Part shown: one piece after another, positions 1-11,335 of the stretch
How positions within the stretch are numbered: the first letter of the stretch is position 1
Layout: each line of letters opens with the position of its first letter
Assembly: GCA_039024555.1 (NCBI GenBank)
Contig: JBCCQQ010000106.1
Span: 1 to 11,335 of the forward strand
Direction of reading: 5' to 3'
Source of the DNA: Cyanobacteria bacterium P01_D01_bin.156
GTDB lineage: Bacteria; Cyanobacteriota; Cyanobacteriia; Phormidesmidales; Phormidesmidaceae
Length of the DNA: 11,335 nt
Notes under the pieces: model-generated
What the model saw: the letters and a program-made list of their open reading frames with translations, nothing else
Databases searched by the model: none
What the model was told of the DNA's origin: nothing
Translations under genes and position numbers: made by a program

Positions 1-279
1 CATATTCGATTATCCGATGGAAATTCGACGAGTTATCTACACCACCAATGCCATTGAGTCGCTCAACCGCTCACTGCGAAAAGTGATCAAAACTAAGGCT
101 GTTTTCCCAAGTGAGGAGGCTGTTTTCAGGCTCATGTATCTAGCCATGAACAATATTGCGAGAGAATGGAACCGACCCATTAAAAATTGGCGTGCAGCCC
201 TGTCGCATTTTGCTATTCTGTTCCCAGAACGCTTTTCCGCGCAAGAAACAAGCGCTTACACAAAAATCATTCCACTCTC
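1..279 (+). mobile_element. IS256-family insertion sequence, right end (partial; runs off the left edge)
   Basis: Encodes the IS256/Mutator transposase C-terminus. It ends in TTACACAAAAATCATTCCACTCTC (256-279; GAGAGTGGAATGATTTTTGTGTAA on the other strand), resembling IS256-family terminal inverted repeats. The left IR and target-site duplication are not visible. Confidence 0.85.
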
Positions 280-415
280 CAATTGTGTTTTAGAGTACGT
301 GCGACCCACCAGCACCACATGCAGTCTCAAATCACCTCTCAGTGACCTAACGTTTAAATCAGCGACCGTGCAGTGGCTCACTGCATTTGCTAGTTATGAT
401 AATCATCATACTTAA
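2..415 (+). CDS. IS256-family transposase, C-terminal part (5'-truncated by the window; the frame reads through the terminal IR)
   Basis: The frame is open from base 2: IFDYPMEIRRVIYTTNAIESLNRSLRKVIKTKAVFPSEEAVFRLMYLA...W...NW..AL..FAILFPERF. TTNxIEsxN is the family signature containing the catalytic Glu. Family-like sequence ends at about 241; residues after that look like read-through. Confidence 0.9.
   Translation: MFDYPMEIRRVIYTTNAIESLNRSLRKVIKTKAVFPSEEAVFRLMYLAMNNIAREWNRPIKNWRAALSHFAILFPERFSAQETSAYTKIIPLSNCVLEYVRPTSTTCSLKSPLSDLTFKSATVQWLTAFASYDNHHT
345..399 (-). other. Integron attC-like recombination site (55 bp)
   Basis: Minus strand reads TCATAAC-TAGCAA-AT[G]CAGTGA[G]CC-ACTGCAC-GGTCGCTGAT-TTAAAC-GTTAGGT. 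It has an R'' (..AAC) box at the end of the ORF, L''/L' arms that pair with one mismatch and two unpaired extra bases, and an R' box matching GTTRRRY. Confidence 0.8.
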
Positions 416-1412: not shown

Positions 1413-2591
1413 TTAAACTTTAGCTAAGCGAAAGGCTGCACCGAGACCAGCGCCCATCTCTTCGGGAGTAATCTTCCCATCATGGTCAATATCGAGAGCA
1501 TCAAATACCGCATCGGCTCCCATCCATTCTTCACGGGTAATAAAGCCATCTCCATCTAAATCATAGGCACGGAAAATATCTTCGGCAGCATGACTCACAA
1601 CAGCATTCCCCTCTAGCTGAGCTAGCCTATCTGCGAGTAGAGACTCCAACGATTCAAGGGCTTTTGTAAATCCTTGAATGCCTTCTAACAACTTTTCGGA
1701 TGCCATACGATTAGCGACATGCATTTCATCAAACGTGGCTTTATCCACCGAGATTTTCTCAATCTCTAGGGTTTTAGCGGTCTCAGCTGATAGCTTTTGA
1801 GGTAATTCTTCCGTTACTGCATCCAGTTGAGCTAGCAGTTTTGGCGAAATGGTCAACAGATCACAGCCTGCTAATTCTTTCAATTCGTCTGTATTACGAA
1901 AGCTGGCTCCCATCACTTCCGTAGAGTAGCCAAACTTTTTGTAATAGTTATAAATCTCAGTGACCGACAATACTCCTGGATCTTCAGCAGGGGCATAGCT
2001 GTCTTTGCCAGTCTCTTTTTTATACCAGTCAAGAATGCGACCTACAAAAGGGGAAATAAGCGTGATTCCGGATTCTGCACAGGCAATGGCCTGATGTAAG
2101 CCAAATAACAGAGTTAGGTTACAGTGGATGCCTTCTTTTTCTAACGTTTCAGCGGCTTTGATGCCTTCCCAGGTGGAGGCAATTTTAATCAATACACGCT
2201 CTCGGGAAATGCCAGCAGCTTCATACTGGGCGATCAAATCCCTCGCTGTGGCTAGGGTTGCTTCGGTATCGTAGGACAAGCGAGCGTCTACTTCTGTAGA
2301 TACACGACCGGGGATAATTTCTAGAATCTTGCGACCAAAGGCAACGGCTAAACGCTTAAAGGCAAGATTGACAATTTCTTGAGTACTGGCACTAGCTCCA
2401 GCATCTGCTTTTGCAGCCTGCAGCGTGTCATCGACAATGCTCTGATATTGAGGCATCTGGGCCGCTGCCGTAATTAAAGATGGATTAGTGGTAGCATCGC
2501 GCGGCTTAAACTGCTCAATTGCTTGAATATCACCAGTGTCGGCAACGACGATTGTCATTTCACGCAATTGATCCAGAAGAGTCTGTGGCAT
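1413..2591 (-). CDS. tal: Transaldolase with C-terminal EF-hand pair
   Basis: Motifs [39 protein letters not shown] (Schiff-base Lys), [24 protein letters not shown]-terminal loops [12 protein letters not shown] and [12 protein letters not shown]. Start probably [10 protein letters not shown] at 2591; alternative ATG at 2615. Confidence 0.97.
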
Positions 2592-2705
2592 GGGTGGGCT
2601 ATATGTGGAGGTCATATTTGAATTGTAGTCAGCCCACCATGCTAAGGATTAGCAGTATCAAAATCTAAACCTTTTTTAAGCAAACGCTTATTTACGATGC
2701 TTTTT

Positions 2706-3237: not shown

Positions 3238-3363
3238 ATGGAACGGGTTTCGATTCATTCCGTAAAACAGCAAGGACATGGCTGAAAGCGTTAGAAAGCC
3301 TCCGCCATGGATAATAAGGACATGCCTGCCTAGGTCTTGTGTCCTTTTTTTAGATTTTGCTTG

Positions 3364-4242
3364 ATGACGACGACGACATTACCCGCTGATGCTCAGCAGT
3401 TAACGGAAGATACATCGGTGGCGTTGGCCCGCCAGATTCAGTTTGTTGATGTTTCTACTAGTTTGATAGATCTGCCAATTAGCACCAGCTATGTGTGCGC
3501 TGGTACTGGCAAACCAATTTTATTAATCCACGGGTTCGATAGCTCGATTTTTGAATTTCGTCGTCTGGTTCCTCAGCTAACGGACAATGCCCAGGTATGG
3601 ACGATGGATTTGCTGGGGTTTGGGTTTACGGATCGTACCTCTGGGGCGCCCATAACCCCAGCTGCTATCAAGCAGCACATGTATAGTTTCTGGCAACAGC
3701 AGATTGGTCAACCGATGATTTTGGCAGGAGCCTCCATGGGAGGAGCTGCAGCGATTGACTTTACGTTGGATTTTCCAGAGGCGGTGGATAAACTTGTGCT
3801 TTTGGACAGTGCTGGGTTTGCGGCGGGACCAGCTATGGGTAAGTTTATGGTGCCACCCTTGGATAGCTGGGCCACGTCATTTCTAAAAAATCCTGGAGTC
3901 CGACGTCGGATTAGTCAGCAGGCTTATTGCGATCGCAACCTAGTTACCCCAGATGCTGAGCTATGTGCTGGGTTACATTTGCAAATGCCCGATTGGAAAG
4001 AAGCACTGATCGCATTTACCAAAAGTGGTGGCTATAATTTCCTGAGCAATGTTATCCAGAAGATTCAGCCTCCCACATTAATTATCTGGGGCGAGCAAGA
4101 CAAAATTCTGGGCACTAAAGATGCCAAACGATTTGAAAAAACGATTCCCCATAATCAACTGGTTTGGATTCCAGACTGTGGTCACGTTCCCCATCTGGAA
4201 AAGCCCAGGAACACTGCCCAGGCAATAATGTCTTTTTGTTAA
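3364..4242 (+). CDS. Alpha/beta-fold hydrolase
   Basis: LLIHGFDSS oxyanion motif, DLLGFG, GASMGG nucleophile elbow, IIWGEQD acid, CGHVPHLE catalytic His. ATG at 3364 is preferred over TTG at 3337. Confidence 0.93.
   Translation: MTTTTLPADAQQLTEDTSVALARQIQFVDVSTSLIDLPISTSYVCAGTGKPILLIHGFDSSIFEFRRLVPQLTDNAQVWTMDLLGFGFTDRTSGAPITPAAIKQHMYSFWQQQIGQPMILAGASMGGAAAIDFTLDFPEAVDKLVLLDSAGFAAGPAMGKFMVPPLDSWATSFLKNPGVRRRISQQAYCDRNLVTPDAELCAGLHLQMPDWKEALIAFTKSGGYNFLSNVIQKIQPPTLIIWGEQDKILGTKDAKRFEKTIPHNQLVWIPDCGHVPHLEKPRNTAQAIMSFC
3929..3936. repeat. HIP1 octamer GCGATCGC
   Basis: Exact match to the cyanobacterial highly iterated palindrome. Confidence 0.8.
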
Positions 4243-4341
4243 GTGAGGGCTCTTACAGACATGGTTTAGTCGCTATGGTTGCTAACTGCCCAATATTGGC
4301 TTCTCTATTGTCCTTGGACATCCCATCTGCTGCCACCACCC

Positions 4342-5193
4342 ATGGAACATGAGACAATCTTAAATGTCTGTCCCCAGGACCTCAGCGTTACTCAGTGGAC
4401 TCGATTTACCCGCTTTTTGCTATACGGCTTCTATCAATTAACCGGGGAGCCGATGCGTCTGTTTTTGCTGGGCGGGCTATTTGTGATTAGTTTTCTAATT
4501 ATTAGTGGTCTGCTGATGCGGGGATTGATTTTATTGGAGCGGGGACGACGGATTAAAAAGCTATGGCTGTGGGGGTTTCCCATTGCTCTTTTTCTCAGTC
4601 TATCTCCCTTACTGATTGGGGAACCCCTACTGACCACATTTGTCCCTACCTATGAAGGGCAAACGGCTGATGCTGTGGTGGTTCTCGGTCGAGGCAGCTG
4701 GCTCTATAATGACCGGTTGATGAAGGCTGCAGACCTGATCCAAAGCGAGGCTGCACCTCGGGTATTTGTCAGCGGTAGTAATGACGCACCGATGATGGCC
4801 ATGCTGCTGGCTAAGCTCGGGGTGGAAGCGACCAAAATCTCTGGAGAAAATTGTTCTAAGACCACGGAAGAAAATGCCGAATATACGGCTGAACAGCTTA
4901 TACCTACAGGGGTAAGGTCTATTATCTTAATTAGCGATCCGGCCCACATGTTGCGATCGCAGCTAGTCTTTCAAAGCTTTGGTTTTCAAGTTATTCCCTA
5001 TTCCAGTCCGTTACCCCATGGCCTAGGTCTTCGCTACCGCCGATTGATTACCATGCGAGAATCCCTTGGTCTGGTCAGCTACGGTCTTATGGGGCGCTAC
5101 TGGCCCCGTTCCATCATTTCGACAGAGACCACGGCTGCCCAGAAAGCACCGTTGCGGAAACTACCGATGAATCACATTCGCCCAGTAAACTAA
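4342..5193 (+). CDS. YdcF/ElyC-family (DUF218) membrane protein
   Basis: N-terminal hydrophobic segments, then ADAVVVLGRG, VFVSG, ENCSKTTEENA, ILISDPAHMLRS and RESLGL, all characteristic of DUF218. The start is uncertain (ATG 4342; alternatives 4279 and 4453). Confidence 0.9.
   Translation: MEHETILNVCPQDLSVTQWTRFTRFLLYGFYQLTGEPMRLFLLGGLFVISFLIISGLLMRGLILLERGRRIKKLWLWGFPIALFLSLSPLLIGEPLLTTFVPTYEGQTADAVVVLGRGSWLYNDRLMKAADLIQSEAAPRVFVSGSNDAPMMAMLLAKLGVEATKISGENCSKTTEENAEYTAEQLIPTGVRSIILISDPAHMLRSQLVFQSFGFQVIPYSSPLPHGLGLRYRRLITMRESLGLVSYGLMGRYWPRSIISTETTAAQKAPLRKLPMNHIRPVN
4953..4960. repeat. HIP1 octamer GCGATCGC
   Basis: Exact match. Confidence 0.8.
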
Positions 5194-5232
5194 GGCAGAA
5201 ATGCATCCATTTTTGCCGGAGGTTGCCATTCC

Positions 5233-6891
5233 ATGGCTTCAGTTTCATCGTCATCTGCCCGCTGGGTGACCATCACCGTGGTGATGGTTACCCTATTTAT
5301 CGCGTTTTTCTGGCAGCTGGACCACATTGGTTTAGTGGATGAAACTGAGCCCCTATTTGCCGAAGCGGCTCGCCAGATGTATGCCACTGGCGATTGGATT
5401 ACCCCCTACTTCAATGGAGTCACTCGGTTTGATAAACCTCCCCTGGTGTACTGGGCCATGGCCCTGGGGTTTCATATTTTTGGCGTTGGTGAACTAGGGG
5501 TGCGTTTGCCTTCGGCTTTAGCCGCAGCTGGCCTTACTGGATTTTGCTTCTGTACGCTTCAACGTTATGCCTGCAAAGACCGAGGGGGCCAGGCATTTGG
5601 GTTAGCTGCCTTAGTGGGTGCTGTTGCCATGGCCCTCCACCCTGAAACCATTGTCTGGGGGCGTATTGGAGTTTCAGATATGCTGCTCACAGGCTGTATT
5701 GGTGCAGCCTTGCTTTGCTTTTTTTGGGGCTATGCAGAGGGTGGTAAGGCACGTTGGTACTATGCCTTTTACACCTTTATTGGTTTGGGCGTCCTGGATA
5801 AGGGACCTGTGGGAGCCGTCCTGCCGGGTCTGGTAGTGTTTACTTTTGCCCTTTATTTGGGTCAAATTCCCACGCTTCTCAAAGAAGTAAAACTGTTGCG
5901 CGGCAGTTTACTGGTACTCCTACTTACCGTTCCATGGTTTGTGGCCGTCACTGCCATCCATGGTCAAACCTACATCGATAGCTTTTTTGGCTATCACAAC
6001 TATGAGCGCTTTACCGATGTCGTTAATGGCCATGCCGCCCCTTGGTACTTTTACTTTGCAGTTGTCGCCATTGGATTTCTCCCCTGGTCTCCGGCCTTAC
6101 CCTTCGCTATGGCGCGACTGCGTCCGTGGGCGATGGATTACTGGCGACGACAGCCTCGAGAAAATCACCTGGGGCTATTTGCCCTGATTTGGTTTCTGGC
6201 CATTTTTTGCTTTTTCACAGCAGCGGTCACCAAACTGCCTAGCTATGTTCTGCCATTGATGCCTGCAGCGGCGATTATGATAGGGCTAATGTGGGCTGGG
6301 CCAATTCGTAAAGGAACCTGGCTCAGTGCTATTCTCAGTCTTGTATTTTTTGCCATCCTGGCAGTGGCGTCCTACCTAACTCCCAACTGGATTGGTGGAG
6401 ATCCGGTCATGCCAGATTTCCCTGAGTTAGTGCGAGACTCCCAGGCGATGGTCTACGGTGCCATTGTTTGGGGTTTAGCTACCCTAGTCGGATTAGGGCT
6501 GCTGATCATGCGACGAGTGCGATGGGTATGGACCGTCAGTTTTATAGCCTTTTCTGCCTTTACTATTACCTCAATCTTGCCTGTAGCGGCTATTGCCGAC
6601 AGTCAGCGCCAGCTGCCTCTACGCCAACTAGCCGCAACCGTAAAAGCAGAACAACAGCCCGATGAAACCCTCGCCATGGTGGGCTTTATGAAGCCTAGCC
6701 TAGTGTTTTACACCCAGCGTCCTGTGCTGTACGTTTATAATCCTGACTCAGAAACACTCCAACAAACAGGGCAGGCACTCGTTGTAGGGCATCCTGAAGA
6801 AATTGCAACCGCCATCACCACCAGTCAATCAGGAGAGATTTTGCAAACAGCTGGCACCTATCAGCTAGCACGCCTGACATTTACTCCGTAG
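5233..6891 (+). CDS. ArnT-like glycosyltransferase (GT-C fold, family 39/83-type), polytopic membrane protein
   Basis: LVDETEPLFAEAARQM..GDWITPYFNG..RFDKPPLVYW, RLPSAL, KGPVG, PWF, H..PWYFY, TKLPSYVLPLMPAAA, plus many transmembrane segments. Confidence 0.93.
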   Translation: MASVSSSSARWVTITVVMVTLFIAFFWQLDHIGLVDETEPLFAEAARQMYATGDWITPYFNGVTRFDKPPLVYWAMALGFHIFGVGELGVRLPSALAAAGLTGFCFCTLQRYACKDRGGQAFGLAALVGAVAMALHPETIVWGRIGVSDMLLTGCIGAALLCFFWGYAEGGKARWYYAFYTFIGLGVLDKGPVGAVLPGLVVFTFALYLGQIPTLLKEVKLLRGSLLVLLLTVPWFVAVTAIHGQTYIDSFFGYHNYERFTDVVNGHAAPWYFYFAVVAIGFLPWSPALPFAMARLRPWAMDYWRRQPRENHLGLFALIWFLAIFCFFTAAVTKLPSYVLPLMPAAAIMIGLMWAGPIRKGTWLSAILSLVFFAILAVASYLTPNWIGGDPVMPDFPELVRDSQAMVYGAIVWGLATLVGLGLLIMRRVRWVWTVSFIAFSAFTITSILPVAAIADSQRQLPLRQLAATVKAEQQPDETLAMVGFMKPSLVFYTQRPVLYVYNPDSETLQQTGQALVVGHPEEIATAITTSQSGEILQTAGTYQLARLTFTP

Positions 6892-6921: not shown

Positions 6922-9900
6922 TTAATGACAGAAAGAGTCATGGAAAGACTCAGCAGTGGTTCCTGAGGTAACGAGATTAACCCTTCCGTCAGTAACGAGG
7001 ATCTCTTGAGCCTCAACCACTGACAGCTCACTGGTAGCAGGATTAAAGGTTTCGGCAGAGGGAGCGCTCTCTAACTCTTTGTTGTTTTCTGGTTCAGAAG
7101 GCTGTTGCCTTAAATCTGTCCATATATTTGTTCCCTGCAGTGGTTGTGCTGGATCAGCGCCTACACCACCCCGTCCAGAGGTTACCAGTGAATTAGTTAC
7201 AGAGGATGCTGCGCACGATTTAGCAACGGCACCATCGCCTTCAAAGTCTGCAGTCAATACAGATAAACCCTGAGCTAGATCCACTTCCAGAGTATTTAAC
7301 TCAACATTTCCCTGCAAATCAGGCCCTAATTCTGAACTGGCGGTGATATCGCTTTCAGGTGTTAGCTGCAGTCGATAGTCTGTACCAAGCAAGCTGAGAG
7401 CATTCACAACAATTTGACCACCAAAACTTTCCTCAGCATTAGCCGTAATATCACTATTTTCTAAGGCAATTAGAAAATCTGTATCGATTAAAATATTGCC
7501 ACCAACAGCAGTTCCCCGAGCATCGGTTGCAAACAGGCTACCGTCACGTAACAAAATGACGGGGGACGTAAAGTTCAGGTTACCCTGCCCTCCAGAAGCC
7601 GTAATCTCACTGTCGTTTAGGTATAGAATCTCAGGAGCGCTAACCACAATATTTCCCGCATCACCTGAACCAATTGCATTAGCCACAAACTGACTGTCGT
7701 TTAGTAAACGAAGACTATCAGCTGTAATCTTTAAATTACCGCCGCTGCCGTCACCGGCTGCACTACTACTAATTTGGCTGGCATCGTCTAAAGTTAACGT
7801 ATCTGCTAAGACGACAATATTTCCCTCCTGACCGCTTAGGGTATCCGCATTGAGGGTAGCCATATTCAATACCTGAATACTATCGGCCTCAAGATTAATA
7901 TTTCCAGCAGGTCCAGTACCCGATGGAGCACCACTTAGGCGATCAAAGTTACTGACATCTATGGTTGCCGTATCTTGGATCAAAATTTGGGGGGCCGTGA
8001 GAGAAATATCGCCCCCTGAACCATCCCCGACCACAGCTCGGCTATAAATTCCACTGATTAACGTTTCATCGGTACCCGTACCAGCCAATTCAATCGTATC
8101 TCGTGCAGTCACAATCACATCACCGCCAGCACCATCACCAAAGGTACTGTTGGAGATATAGGCACCATTACTCACTTTTAGCTCATCCGTATCAATACGA
8201 ATGGCACCTGCATTGCCAGTACCTGGATCGCTTACCTCAGCGGAAATAAAACTAGGTGTTTCTCGGATAGCAAACTCTAATGGAGAAAAACTAATGACTC
8301 CACCAAACCCATCTCCTGTTCCATCTACTTCAACAGTATCAGCTGTAATATTAATATCACCGCCATCTCCCGTACCACTGTTGGATGAGCTTAGTTGGCT
8401 ACCATTTAATACCTGTAGGTTAGGAGTATCGATATTGATATCTCCAGCATTGCCAGTGGGTGGGGATGAGCCACCAAATATATCTAAAATAGGAGCAGCC
8501 GCTGTCACCAATGATGTCAATGCAGGAAAGAAGGCAAACTCTGGAAGTTGGCTGTCAATAATGACAGATTCTGTTGCAGTAATATTGAGAACGCCCGCAT
8601 CACCACTCCCACGGGTCTGTACCCCTGTAATACTGCCATCAATTAACGATAAGCGTTCTGTTGTAATGTTAATGTCGCCACCATTGCCAGCAGCATTCAC
8701 ACCAACATAGGAGCCAAAAACACTAAGATTCGATGTCAGATCCAGCTCTCCGATAGAAATATCTTTAGCATTAATAGTGACATTTCCAGCATCTCCATCC
8801 CCATTAGTTTCAGTTAATAAAATTCCTCCTCCTGAAATAGTAAAGTTATCAGTATTAATGGCAACATCAGCACCATCTCCCGTACTGCCTGCGGGTGCTA
8901 CAGTTGTCCAGGTACTGGTAACAAATGGACTATAGTTCTCAGCAGCGGAGGTGGGAGGATTAGGGGGAAACGGTGCACCGGTATATTCCAAGCCTTGAAT
9001 TGTAATACTCCCAGGAGCAATCGCTTGTAAGGAACCACCGTCTGCACTCCCCAAGGTCTCCAGAAGAATAACAGAGCCACTACTAAAATCGATGTTGTTA
9101 GCTAACATATTGACGTTGCCGGATGGATCTCCGCTAGCGTCAATGGAACCTGCTCCGGTGACTACCAAGTCACCTAATTCGGTGCCAGATGGTAAATCGA
9201 TACTGGGAACACCTGCATCTGATTGAAACGATAGAAACTCCTCTGTAGTACTACTCAAGGGTAAATAGCCAGTTGAGATCGCAGCTAGTTCAACAGTTCC
9301 TCCAGTACTGGTTAGGTTACCACCATTGACTATGATATTTCCTCCCAATAATGCGAGAGAGTGCCCTGCAGGGATTATTAATCCATCTTGGCGAAATCTG
9401 GTGTCCAGCAACTCTGTATTAAGGTCCACCACTATTTGGCTACCTGAACCCTCCACTCGGATTTCACCAGGATCTGCACCATATTGTAAACCCAGGGGAG
9501 TACTTACAGTCAACAAGGGAACTGTTGAAGGATTTACAGCGCTAAAGCTATCTCCATTACCAAAATCAATGGACTCGGCTGTTGTTACCACCAATGAACC
9601 GTCAATATCTAGCTGAGCAGTTTCACCAAAAATCACACCGTTAGAATTGAGCAAAAATAGATCAGCAGTTCCGTCAACGCCCAAAGTCCCCAAAATATTA
9701 GAAGCATTGTTGCCCGTAACACGGGTAAATATAGTTTCGATGCCTGCCGGATCGGCAAAGTAAACCCGTTCTCCCACTTGCACGTTAAAGTCTTGAAAGC
9801 TATGAAATAGACTGTCACTGCGGGTAGCTCCGCCTTCGATCAAAATAGCTGAGCTACCACCTACAGTTGCCGACGTATTAACGCTAGAGTTCTGATCGCT

Positions 9901-10059
9901 GAGCTGGCTAGAAGGAGCCAATGTAGTGTCAGGAATAATCTGAGCCACTGCTCCAGACATCATACTAACCATGTGCATTCCCCACATGAGGTGAGCACCA
10001 AGTAAAGGCCACCCCCAACGCATTAGTCGAGGCTGCTGCTTAGATTGAGGAGTAATCAT
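6922..10059 (-). CDS. Filamentous haemagglutinin N-terminal-domain exoprotein (TpsA-like, two-partner secretion)
   Basis: Signal-like N-terminus ending AVA-QIIPD. Secretion domain motifs LFHSFQDFNV, IFTRVTG, SNILGTL, LFLLNSNGVIFG. Many GxGxAG(N/D)IxI beta-helix repeats. Cyanobacterial-type C-terminus DITASS...C...GRGG...C. Confidence 0.93.
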   Translation of the reverse strand: MITPQSKQQPRLMRWGWPLLGAHLMWGMHMVSMMSGAVAQIIPDTTLAPSSQLSDQNSSVNTSATVGGSSAILIEGGATRSDSLFHSFQDFNVQVGERVYFADPAGIETIFTRVTGNNASNILGTLGVDGTADLFLLNSNGVIFGETAQLDIDGSLVVTTAESIDFGNGDSFSAVNPSTVPLLTVSTPLGLQYGADPGEIRVEGSGSQIVVDLNTELLDTRFRQDGLIIPAGHSLALLGGNIIVNGGNLTSTGGTVELAAISTGYLPLSSTTEEFLSFQSDAGVPSIDLPSGTELGDLVVTGAGSIDASGDPSGNVNMLANNIDFSSGSVILLETLGSADGGSLQAIAPGSITIQGLEYTGAPFPPNPPTSAAENYSPFVTSTWTTVAPAGSTGDGADVAINTDNFTISGGGILLTETNGDGDAGNVTINAKDISIGELDLTSNLSVFGSYVGVNAAGNGGDINITTERLSLIDGSITGVQTRGSGDAGVLNITATESVIIDSQLPEFAFFPALTSLVTAAAPILDIFGGSSPPTGNAGDINIDTPNLQVLNGSQLSSSNSGTGDGGDINITADTVEVDGTGDGFGGVISFSPLEFAIRETPSFISAEVSDPGTGNAGAIRIDTDELKVSNGAYISNSTFGDGAGGDVIVTARDTIELAGTGTDETLISGIYSRAVVGDGSGGDISLTAPQILIQDTATIDVSNFDRLSGAPSGTGPAGNINLEADSIQVLNMATLNADTLSGQEGNIVVLADTLTLDDASQISSSAAGDGSGGNLKITADSLRLLNDSQFVANAIGSGDAGNIVVSAPEILYLNDSEITASGGQGNLNFTSPVILLRDGSLFATDARGTAVGGNILIDTDFLIALENSDITANAEESFGGQIVVNALSLLGTDYRLQLTPESDITASSELGPDLQGNVELNTLEVDLAQGLSVLTADFEGDGAVAKSCAASSVTNSLVTSGRGGVGADPAQPLQGTNIWTDLRQQPSEPENNKELESAPSAETFNPATSELSVVEAQEILVTDGRVNLVTSGTTAESFHDSFCH

Positions 10060-10238
10060 GGTGGTAGACGCTTTTCAGTAGGGGAATTCAAGGCATGAGT
10101 GAATCCCCCTGATTATTCCCATCCTCTGGAAGGGATCACTAACTCTAGTTGATACTAAACTGGGCTTGTTACGGTAAATACGTAGAATACGGATTCCAAA
10201 GAGCAGTGCATATCTAGTATTTACAATCAAATTAACTT

Positions 10239-10292
10239 ATTGAGCTGAAGTTAAAAAAGTCTCAGATTGAGCTGAATGTAGCAAAGTCTTAG
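10239..10292. repeat. Two tandem 27-bp imperfect direct repeats
   Basis: ATTGAGCTGAAGTTAAAAAAGTCTCAG and ATTGAGCTGAATGTAGCAAAGTCTTAG, 22/27 identical. Confidence 0.75.
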
Positions 10293-10416
10293 GCCAAATT
10301 CAGTACATATACGATTACTTTTGAAATGTATCAAGGAGAATCTAATTATTATTGGAGATATAGGCAAATGTACTAAATCCCATAACTGTTCTTTCGACTT
10401 ATTAAGTGTAAATACC

Positions 10417-10569
10417 ATGTCAGAGCAAACTCAAACTACTCAGCCTCTTTTATGGAAACCTCTTGCTGATAAGAATGCAGAAATCGTAAAGGGAGGTGGA
10501 AAAGTTACTTATACTGATTGGTGCCCTCGAACAGGTAAGCATGTAACAAAGACCATTTGGGTTCCATAA
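10417..10569 (+). CDS. Double-glycine-leader peptide precursor, copy 1 (50 aa)
   Basis: MSEQTQTTQPLLWKPLADKNAEIVKGG|GKVTYTDWCPRTGKHVTKTIWVP. LxDxxAExVxGG is a double-Gly-type leader end. The paralog at 11021 differs mostly at synonymous sites in the core. Confidence 0.85.
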   Translation: MSEQTQTTQPLLWKPLADKNAEIVKGGGKVTYTDWCPRTGKHVTKTIWVP

Positions 10570-10652
10570 CATTTTTACTAAGTTCCGATCGTGTTTTTAG
10601 AAGCGTCTTAATACGACACTTCTTTAACGTTATTGCAATATGAGAGATTTTA

Positions 10653-10694
10653 AGAAGAGCTGAGCTATCTATTCTATGGAAGCTCAGCTCTTCT
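10653..10694. terminator. Strong stem-loop downstream of peptide copy 1 (terminator or RNA stabiliser)
   Basis: Perfect 14-bp inverted repeat AGAAGAGCTGAGCT / AGCTCAGCTCTTCT with a 14-nt loop, followed by ATATTGTTTT. Confidence 0.65.
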
Positions 10695-11020
10695 ATATTG
10701 TTTTACAAGAAAATTTTGAGGCACCAAATGCCTCTTTACAAAGGGCTTATGTCAAGCCTAAACACATTAAAGCTATTACTAATCGATATTAATGCTGAAG
10801 TGGCTAATTAGCCAGAGCAATGGTGGCTGTTAGCCAATAGAAAATCACAAGGCTTTATACTCGAAACACTTTATTTATTTTAAGTTCATACATTCTTAAA
10901 CTGAAACTCAGCAGTCGTACCATTACTTTTGACATTTGTACATGAGAACATAGACGTAGAGAAATGTGCAAATGCACTAAATCTCATACCTGTTCTTTCA
11001 ATTTACAAGGTGTACGTAAC

Positions 11021-11170
11021 ATGTCTAAGCTTACTCAAACAACCAAAACTATTTTATGGCAACCCCTTTCTGATAAAAATTCAGCAGCTCTAAAGGGTGG
11101 TGGAAAGGTTACTTATACTGATTGGTGTAACCGAACAGGTAAGCACGTAACAAAGACTATATGGGTCTAA
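11021..11170 (+). CDS. Double-glycine-leader peptide precursor, copy 2 (49 aa)
   Basis: MSKLTQTTKTILWQPLSDKNSAALKGG|GKVTYTDWCNRTGKHVTKTIWV, with AAGGTG upstream as a possible RBS. 37/49 identical to copy 1. Confidence 0.85.
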   Translation: MSKLTQTTKTILWQPLSDKNSAALKGGGKVTYTDWCNRTGKHVTKTIWV

Positions 11171-11205
11171 TCATAATTGTCATTGAGCTCTGATCGGGTA
11201 CCAAC

Positions 11206-11334
11206 TTAAGCCGCAAAACCATTTGCGTATGAGGGATTCATCTTTTGTGCTTTAGATGACTTCCGGGGCATCGGTAAATCACCAATATGCTCGAGCATCC
11301 ATTCGAATACATCTGGAAAAGGGTGGTCAAAAAG
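11206..11334 (-). CDS. C-terminal 42 aa of an unidentified gene entering from the right edge
   Basis: Open frame from the window edge: LFDHPFPDVFEWMLEHIGDLPMPRKSSKAQKMNPSYANGFAA*, stopping 35 nt from the peptide copy 2 stop. Too short to assign a family. Confidence 0.5.
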   Translation of the reverse strand, partial: LFDHPFPDVFEWMLEHIGDLPMPRKSSKAQKMNPSYANGFAA

Positions 11335-11335
11335 C

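Follow-up and report, generated by a model that had tools for sequence, protein, structure and literature searches.

A tandem pair of double-glycine-leader peptide genes in a marine cyanobacterium, and the narrowly distributed family to which they belong

Introduction

What do two short and similar open reading frames (ORFs) near the end of a cyanobacterial contig encode, and how would their products leave the cell? The question is raised by a stretch of DNA from Cyanobacteria bacterium P01_D01_bin.156, here called the window, which comprises the whole of contig C106 (11,335 bp) in a genome, G000, of 6.6 Mb that is 99% complete and assembled into 149 contigs. A first-pass annotation, made from the letters alone, had read the two ORFs, which we call pepA and pepB, as candidate genes for secreted peptides or for RiPPs (peptides made on the ribosome and modified after translation). 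To our knowledge, double-glycine peptides are abundant in cyanobacteria and almost none of them has a known function.

On our best reading, pepA and pepB represent a family of double-glycine-leader peptides that is new and confined to few organisms. With some reserve, we favor the view that these tandem genes encode precursors which a C39-peptidase ABC transporter (PCAT), together with an HlyD-type partner, cuts and carries out of the cell, and that each would release a cationic peptide of 22–23 residues with a predicted beta-hairpin fold.

Results

An Old Gene Pair with a Conserved Core

The gene pepA (10417–10569, forward strand) encodes a precursor of 50 amino acids (aa), its leader, residues 1–27 (10417–10497), ending in KGG and being followed by a predicted mature core of 23 aa (10498–10566) and the stop codon; pepB (11021–11170, forward strand) encodes 49 aa, with leader residues 1–27 at 11021–11101 and a predicted mature core of 22 aa at 11102–11167, again followed by the stop codon. 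The positions are exactly those first annotated, the start codons lying 604 bp apart; Gly-Gly occupies residues 26–27 in both precursors, and both leaders terminate in L-x-D-K-N-x-x-x-[V/L]-K-G-G. Overall identity is 76%, and a codon-by-codon comparison returned the values given in the first pass, 16/27 for the leader and 21/22 for the core; within the core, six codons differ synonymously and one residue is changed. That single replacement, Pro37/Asn37, differs at all three codon positions, and pepA carries an extra C-terminal Pro. The core composition was also as described (five Thr, one Cys, two Trp, Tyr, and His, cationic), the net charge being +3.

The earlier claim of purifying selection on the core was borne out. 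By the Nei–Gojobori method, the core shows a synonymous divergence (dS) of 0.73 and a nonsynonymous divergence (dN) of 0.04, thus a dN/dS of ~0.055, and the leader a dS of 0.71 and a dN of 0.23, with a dN/dS of 0.33; the excess of synonymous over nonsynonymous change in the core is beyond chance (Fisher p = 0.0002). These values mark pepA and pepB as old duplicates under strong purifying selection on the core and not a recent copy. In-frame upstream extensions of both ORFs (82 aa and 68 aa) were rejected, since other paralogues carry stops within the equivalent conserved upstream stretch.

These numbers bear on one alternative, namely that the ORFs are not expressed as peptides and that their conservation is that of a repeated noncoding or mobile element. 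Such an origin would fit a short contig bordered by transposase-related fragments. It does not fit six synonymous changes against one replacement at a dS of 0.73, nor amino-acid motifs that are kept across paralogues and species despite diverged DNA; there are, furthermore, a start codon, an AAGGTG of Shine–Dalgarno type ahead of pepB, and a hairpin resembling a terminator. We consider this alternative very improbable.

A Family with a Fixed Leader and Variable Cores

A genome search with pepA, followed by an iterated hidden Markov model search of six-frame short ORFs, recovered 23 family ORFs in G000 at E ≤ 0.01, and a broader profile gave 24 matches. The genes are spread over 16 loci, several of which are arrays of two or three, and their products share the leader ..K..LW(Q/K)P(L/I)S(D/N)(K/Q)QAE(V/I)VKGG or, in short form, LWxP[LI]SxxQAExxKGG. 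In an alignment of 21 sequences, Leu12, Trp13, Gly26, Gly27, Cys36, and Thr39 are invariant. Orthologous copies are present in a second species (G013), and pooling these with the G000 copies and with metagenome proteins gave 33 distinct family peptides. Gly-Gly closes the conserved leader block in 33/33 of them; C-x-x-[T/S/A] occurs in 32, with Thr in 30 of those, and Trp, Tyr, or Phe directly precedes the Cys in 30 of the 32 motif-bearing peptides. The consensus of this turn motif is aromatic-C-x-x-[T/S/A]-[K/G/R]-[K/R]-x-[M/V/L]: after the Thr region, positions two and three are mostly basic, and Met, Val, Leu, or Ile stands at Cys+7. On both sides of the motif, the core sequence is hypervariable. 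Cores are 17–40 residues long, carry a net positive charge in 32/33 peptides, and contain exactly one Cys in 28/33; a minority of the 24 G000 copies have unrelated cores, with Arg/Gly-rich ends or of Phe-Gly-Phe-Pro-Gly-Phe-Pro types.

The view that these are unannotated double-glycine-leader peptide genes of a nameless family holds. Neither pepA nor pepB has a Pfam or NCBIfam match, and the NCBIfam models of the Nif11 and NHLP leader families matched none of 21 paralogues at E ≤ 10. A word-indexed search of 5.8 billion clusters returned 9 family proteins and an exhaustive profile search of 1.84 billion representative proteins 26 matches at E ≤ 0.001; the source names of all members are "hypothetical protein," and the hosts are Leptothoe species or unclassified marine cyanobacterial metagenome-assembled genomes (MAGs). 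Across collections with one genome per species, the WCNRTGK-type core was found only in Leptothoe kymatousa TAU-MAC 1615, a second match to a genome contig, ten residues in an alphaproteobacterial MAG, being regarded as chance. The leader profile matches 6/22 genomes of the genus and 6/301 genomes sampled across the class, and a scan of metagenome contigs with the four closest peptides produced 140 pattern matches, none of them confirmed.

Two further sequences deserve mention beside the family. On G000:C51, downstream of 21995 (reverse strand), lies a decayed extra copy in which the conserved 5′ region (..CAGTTCTTTCTAATTTATCGGG-ATG) is kept and the ORF stops after seven codons. Protein P0028, of 676 aa, is built from 11 near-identical repeats, each with K-W-C-L-Q-T-G-Q-R-L-Y, which fits the family core motif; it was not found in G000 and could be a multicore precursor or a chance resemblance.

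Predicted Fold of the Core

A beta-hairpin around C-x-R-T-G had been proposed from the letters, and AlphaFold2, supplied with the family alignment, predicted the same fold and turn. The model has strands at residues 28–36 and 41–49 (pLDDT 91–95), and its turn is Pro/Asn-Arg-Thr-Gly. As the conserved motif sits at the beta-turn of the model, it would have a plain structural explanation.

Candidate Transporter

Five C39 (PF03412) matches, all C39-peptidase ABC transporters, are encoded in G000. The candidate exporter, at C49:25531–27672, has C39, ABC membrane, and ATPase domains and an adjoining HlyD gene; it is the orthologue of the peptide-linked PCAT of related genomes, to which it is 74–78% identical. 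Its C39 domain retains the conserved Gln8, Cys14, His90, and Asp106 positions, which we take to be those of an active C39 domain, with residue roles carried over from ComA and LahT. On C77, G000 encodes a PCAT that falls under the NHLP-export equivalog; the family leader is unrelated to NHLP.

The link between transporter and peptides comes mostly from relatives. On G021:C32, an HlyD–PCAT pair is divergent from four peptides with the same leader; same-leader arrays also adjoin a PCAT, often with HlyD, on G020:C131, G018:C544, and G016:C9, and in G044, from a different cyanobacterial family, a PCAT is divergent from two such peptides. Within G000 itself, same-leader peptides on C46 are at most 4 kb from a transporter. 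Across the genus, the PCAT clade is present in five of the six leader-bearing genomes, full length and at least 74% identical in four of them and as a contig-end fragment of 77% identity in G018, and in the 16 genus genomes that lack the leader, no PCAT exceeds 59% identity. Gene neighborhood and co-occurrence in relatives thus back the first-pass proposal of export by a C39 transporter, which we consider the probable route. The leader itself gives a mixed picture: pepA and pepB have Val or Leu at −4 and Leu at −12, and the family has Val, Ile, or Leu at −4 and Leu, Ile, or Val at −12. According to the consulted part of the report on the LahT protease–leader complex, the C39 pockets are filled by Val−4 and Leu−7 as well as Leu−12 (PMC6363468), and the family leader agrees at two of these three positions, −4 and −12, but not at −7.

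A double-glycine leader and a PCAT link would also suit pheromones, that is, secreted signals of the ComC/BlpC type that are exported by the PCAT and sensed by a histidine kinase. A ComC cluster is among the ESM-Atlas feature neighbors at 0.86, which is a lead only, and the promoter-like region of each gene, together with the shared 5′ motif described below, would permit common regulation. However, the loci have neither a histidine kinase nor a response regulator as a recurrent neighbor, the ~24 different cores per genome are far above known pheromone systems, and the cores are cationic and amphipathic, as in antimicrobial peptides; we find a signaling role improbable.

Modification Enzymes

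Lanthipeptide, radical-SAM cyclophane, and P450 cross-linking chemistry had all been suggested for the core. Lanthipeptide enzymes of classes I–IV were sought by the LanC-like domain (PF05147), and no match was found in G000 or G013; the 22 genus genomes searched include five others with a match. YcaO (PF02624) and MNIO (PF05114) also gave no matches in G000 and G013, and the control genomes were matched. Radical-SAM genes with a SPASM domain, to which the cyclophane makers belong as well, number one in G000 and none in G013. The G000 gene lies 1.3 kb upstream of a peptide pair on C55 but was rejected as its maturase: it is 86–92% identical in 19/21 other genus genomes, nearly all of which are without the peptide family, falls below the cut-off for every maturase model, and is best seen as a housekeeping gene. 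With LanC-like genes absent from a 99%-complete genome and the sole SPASM gene a housekeeping one, the lanthipeptide and radical-SAM thioether routes are left with no candidate enzyme, and these two suggestions find no support. G000 has four P450 genes (on C65, C44, C47, and C1), none of them on a contig region with a family member; the P450 route gains no support from this, though a distal enzyme is conceivable. Around the 16 loci, no enzyme or other ORF besides the peptides recurs. The first-pass interpretation as a whole therefore stands as far as the peptide genes, the selection, the hairpin, and C39 export are concerned and loses ground on the modification routes.

What survives of the RiPP reading, which we regard as weakened, is that a distal enzyme of an unsearched or undescribed class binds the leader and then alters the invariant Cys of the turn, its invariant Thr, or both, ahead of cleavage and export by the PCAT, for example by a Cys–Thr thioether, a heterocycle, glycosylation, or prenylation; a single promiscuous enzyme could then serve many scattered precursors, as in prochlorosins. 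An invariant C-x-x-T amid hypervariable cores and many dispersed precursors with one leader are what this would predict, P450 genes are found in both of the family-bearing genomes G000 and G013, and a type-A lantibiotic cluster is among the ESM-Atlas feature neighbors at 0.88, again as a lead only. Set against this are the missing LanC-like, YcaO, and MNIO matches, the conserved SPASM gene of mostly family-free genomes, the single PqqD-like recognition element, present in G000 and not in G013, the lack of a recurrent enzyme gene beside the loci examined, and the position of C-x-x-T at a modeled beta-turn, where its conservation is structurally explicable. On balance, we think modification by such an enzyme unlikely.

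Arrays Next to TPS-Domain Exoproteins

The neighbor of pepA in the window is a gene with a two-partner secretion (TPS) domain (TpsA-like, with a filamentous-haemagglutinin N-terminal domain; 6922–10059, reverse strand), which is divergent from pepA and encodes 1045 aa (PF05860, E = 2.5e-51; TIGR01901); the protein matches HxuA chain 4i84_A weakly. Its orthologue in G013 (73.5% nucleotide and 74% aa identity) is again divergent from a family array, there of four genes, and the outer flanks of the two loci are unrelated. Altogether, arrays with the same leader adjoin TPS-domain genes at 11 loci, which come from seven genomes: the window, G000:C33, G000:C46, G013:C12, G013:C4, G016:C9, G018:C544, G020:C131, two in G021, and one in G044. 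On G000:C33, G013:C4, G016:C9, G018:C544, G020:C131, and twice in G021, same-strand arrays with the same leader and other cores lie directly upstream of TPS genes of ~900 aa; on G000:C46, the array adjoins the gene of a TPS–CHAT protein; and in G044, the order on one strand is peptides, TPS, and HlyD, with the PCAT divergent and the end of the TPS gene overlapping the HlyD start by 4 nt under the longest-ORF rule. TPS matches are numerous in G000 (24), and 3 of its 16 peptide loci are at most 1 kb from one, where 0.30 would be expected (P = 0.003). In a FastTree phylogeny of 47 TPS proteins, the seven same-strand neighbors fall into a single exclusive clade, its local support being full; the window protein and its G013 orthologue form a separate clade, the sister of which, from G230, the closest outside the genus, is peptide-free.

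The recurrence of such arrays beside TpsA-like exoproteins appears to be a real association, was unexpected, and is the most novel lead of this work. We found no account of the pairing in the literature on double-glycine peptides, C39, and two-partner secretion or haemagglutinin; in the consulted main text of the cyanobacterial survey PMC3140520, hemagglutinin and two-partner terms are absent. The association is not, however, a property of the TPS subfamily at large. Its C-terminal domain occurs in 155/301 genomes, and among 20 sampled loci (33 genes) from other genera, none has such peptides or PCAT/HlyD genes within ~3–4 kb on each side, which led us to reject a general rule of upstream double-glycine peptides.

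If functional, the pairing would join two secretion routes normally treated apart. It is conceivable, though unlikely, that dedicated PCAT–HlyD pairs, hypervariable double-glycine peptide arrays, and the TpsA-like exoprotein form one undescribed export module, with small peptides of hairpin, Gly/Pro-rich, or Tyr-rich character reaching the secreted beta-helix protein or being built onto it; a type-I-like peptide exporter and two-partner secretion would then be linked at the cell surface. A related idea makes the peptides of the family partners or cargo of the exoprotein: once exported, they would bind or extend its beta-helix at the cell surface, in an adhesive, matrix, or contact-dependent role, rather than act as free bacteriocins. 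The 11 loci, the gene order of G044, the proximity within G000, and the exclusive clade of same-strand neighbors, apart as it is from the window's TPS, all favor it, and hairpin peptides might well suit beta-strand addition. But among the 12 G000 loci of the C-x-x-T subgroup, only the window adjoins a TPS gene, and the empty loci of other genera, the peptide-free relative in G230, and the abundance of TPS genes count against it; for pepA and pepB, we see little probability in this role.

Several observations concern the TPS genes and their surroundings. A set of PCAT, HlyD, one to four double-glycine peptides, and a TPS exoprotein of ~900–1000 aa recurs at L080, L082, L083, L076, and L123 (genomes G021, G020, G018, G016, and G044), and G000:C49 (L121:7122–13544) is counted with them; no account of the full set was found. 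On C49, the TPS gene (L121:10954–13544), just upstream of PCAT–HlyD, is split into ORFs of 688 aa and 111 aa, the latter carrying the C-terminal TGRGG motif region; either the gene is frameshifted or the assembly is wrong at this point. In another genus (G238, G304, and G312), a conserved protein of 73–74 aa with a Sec-type signal peptide and a Cys...Cys-(Gly)-Trp-Trp tail is encoded ~2 kb upstream of TPS genes of the same subfamily (L126:7448–7675, L127:7548–7799, and L128:1859–2086) and is a candidate for a different small secreted partner.

Regulatory Elements and Contig Setting

The duplicated unit also covers ~100 nt upstream of each start codon, and the 5′ region of pepA, repeated before pepB, is recognizable before other paralogues too. 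In pepA, the promoter and 5′ region would span 10321–10416 (forward strand), with a promoter-like site at 10321–10349 (forward strand; TTGAAA-17-AATTAT, a 9/12 match to the consensus only), ~65 nt of conserved 5′ untranslated sequence, and the motif CTGTTCTTTC at 10386–10395, 31 nt 5′ of the start. The putative pepB counterpart, 10925–11020 (forward strand), is its duplicate, with TTGACA at 10927–10932 and CTGTTCTTTC at 10990–10999. In general form, the motif is pyrimidine-rich, YTGTTSTTYC, and stands at −29 to −35 in 6/24 family genes with unrelated cores, namely at the two window sites and at G000 positions C2:156396, C2:156997, C8:103606, and C46:24062. It has 219 matches across the genome, counting both strands, and may be a common regulatory or translation element.

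After pepA comes a terminator-like element (10652–10704, forward strand), a long perfect-stem hairpin at 10652–10694 followed by the T-rich ATATTGTTTT. The fold of 10570–10710 has a minimum free energy of −41.1 kcal/mol (z = −5.04), and 0/200 shuffled sequences were equally stable. A simple terminator scan did not list the hairpin, as its loop and stem exceed the rules of the scan. Given the promoter-like boxes and this hairpin, each gene looks like a separate transcription unit. The 5′ untranslated regions fold no better than shuffled sequence, and an Rfam scan of 10060–11335 gave only sub-threshold chance matches.

At its start (2–415, forward strand), the window encodes the C-terminal end of a transposase of the IS256/Mutator type, and it runs out within a DUF6399 fragment (11206–11334, reverse strand). 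Since the contig ends in repeats, where the assembly breaks, the peptide array may extend past the contig end. Of the other genes, one at 1413–2615 (reverse strand) encodes a transaldolase (NF008965, 726 bits) that bears two EF-hand calcium-binding motifs at its C-terminus, and a run of three envelope-related genes at 3337–6891 (forward strand), for an alpha/beta hydrolase, a DUF218 (ElyC-like) protein, and an ArnT/PMT_2-type glycosyltransferase, adjoins the TPS gene and has no synteny with the G013 locus.

Discussion

The scheme we favor is simple. The 27-residue leader would be recognized and cut after Gly-Gly by a PCAT that works with an HlyD-type adaptor, the genes of both lying in another part of the genome and the C49 pair being the predicted one; cleavage and export would free the cationic peptide, which presumably folds into a beta-hairpin. 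It would be released essentially unmodified, or at most become a disulfide-linked dimer through its single Cys, and act outside the cell as a bacteriocin-like agent. For this last step, a role in competition between microbes, we are less confident and would call it possible rather than probable.

Several points weigh against this scheme. No transporter is found on the 11.3-kb window contig, and G013, which is 75% complete, lacks a close PCAT, its best match being 31% identical. Genomes of one genus are nonindependent samples, so that the co-occurrence of leader and transporter is suggestive and not statistical proof. In the leader, −7 is Ala or Ser (Gln in the TPS-linked subgroup) and not Leu, and the invariant Leu-Trp at −16/−15 has no counterpart in the consulted part of the LahT complex account (PMC6363468). 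The alignment behind the AlphaFold2 model comprises 21 related sequences. A Cys and a Thr that never change, spaced three residues apart while the rest of the core is hypervariable, look like a modification site, and there are four P450 genes in the genome. Finally, no immunity or partner ORF recurs beside the peptides around the 16 loci, which would be unusual for a self-targeting bacteriocin.

Whatever its role, the family makes a compact and testable case, with a defined, synthesizable product of 22–23 residues, one particular transporter predicted to export it, the fixed Cys-x-x-Thr turn, and a cultured, named carrier in L. kymatousa TAU-MAC 1615. Genes of this kind are missed by standard genome mining. 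A survey of Leptothoe genomes is reportedly based on antiSMASH. In its consulted part, no bacteriocin cluster is reported for TAU-MAC 1615 (PMC8225149), and the record of that strain carries a family member.

Among known systems, prochlorosins, made from ProcA precursors with ProcM, come to mind for their genetic layout: they too belong to marine cyanobacteria and combine many scattered precursors, one leader, hypervariable cores, and PCAT double-glycine cleavage, the last being predicted here. Unlike them, the family is found in a genome without a LanM/LanC-like gene, its leader is not of the Nif11 type, and one fixed Cys and one fixed Thr replace the variable patterns of Ser, Thr, and Cys. 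In their product, the cores recall tachyplesin, protegrin, and thanatin, cationic beta-hairpin antimicrobial peptides stapled by one or two intramolecular disulfides. They share the size (17–40 residues), the positive charge, and, in the model, a two-stranded antiparallel hairpin; in contrast to those peptides, 28/33 cores have a single Cys, for which a free thiol or an intermolecular bond are the sole options.

The CTB family bacteriocins (NF038167, cyan_ocin_like) are likewise cyanobacterial double-glycine peptides, and according to the consulted part of one study, Nodularia transcribes members of that family and induces them when phosphate is limiting (PMC9846622). Three of 21 paralogues match this model weakly and in the leader only, at profile positions 1–24 of 72 and with 13–16 bits (best 16.3) against a cut-off of 32 (E ≤ 10), whereas pepA and pepB have no match at E ≤ 10 and the core region is unmatched throughout. 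A broader likeness is to PCAT-exported double-glycine peptides in general, such as class II bacteriocins, ComC-type pheromones, and LahT/ProcA, as described in the consulted parts of PMC6363468 and PMC3140520: the short Gly-Gly leader with hydrophobic −4 and −12 positions is shared, and PCAT and HlyD genes lie beside the peptides of relatives. The family differs from them in having a leader of its own, with the invariant Leu-Trp at −16/−15, an Ala or Gln at −7, and no match to a curated model, in the fixed Cys-x-x-Thr turn of its cores, and in the distance of most of its genes from any transporter. As far as the consulted part of the cyanobacterial survey goes, its 290 double-glycine precursors come from tandem or multiple genes with little core conservation (PMC3140520), and in this the tandem and multiple genes of the present family, with their own poorly conserved cores, are much like them.

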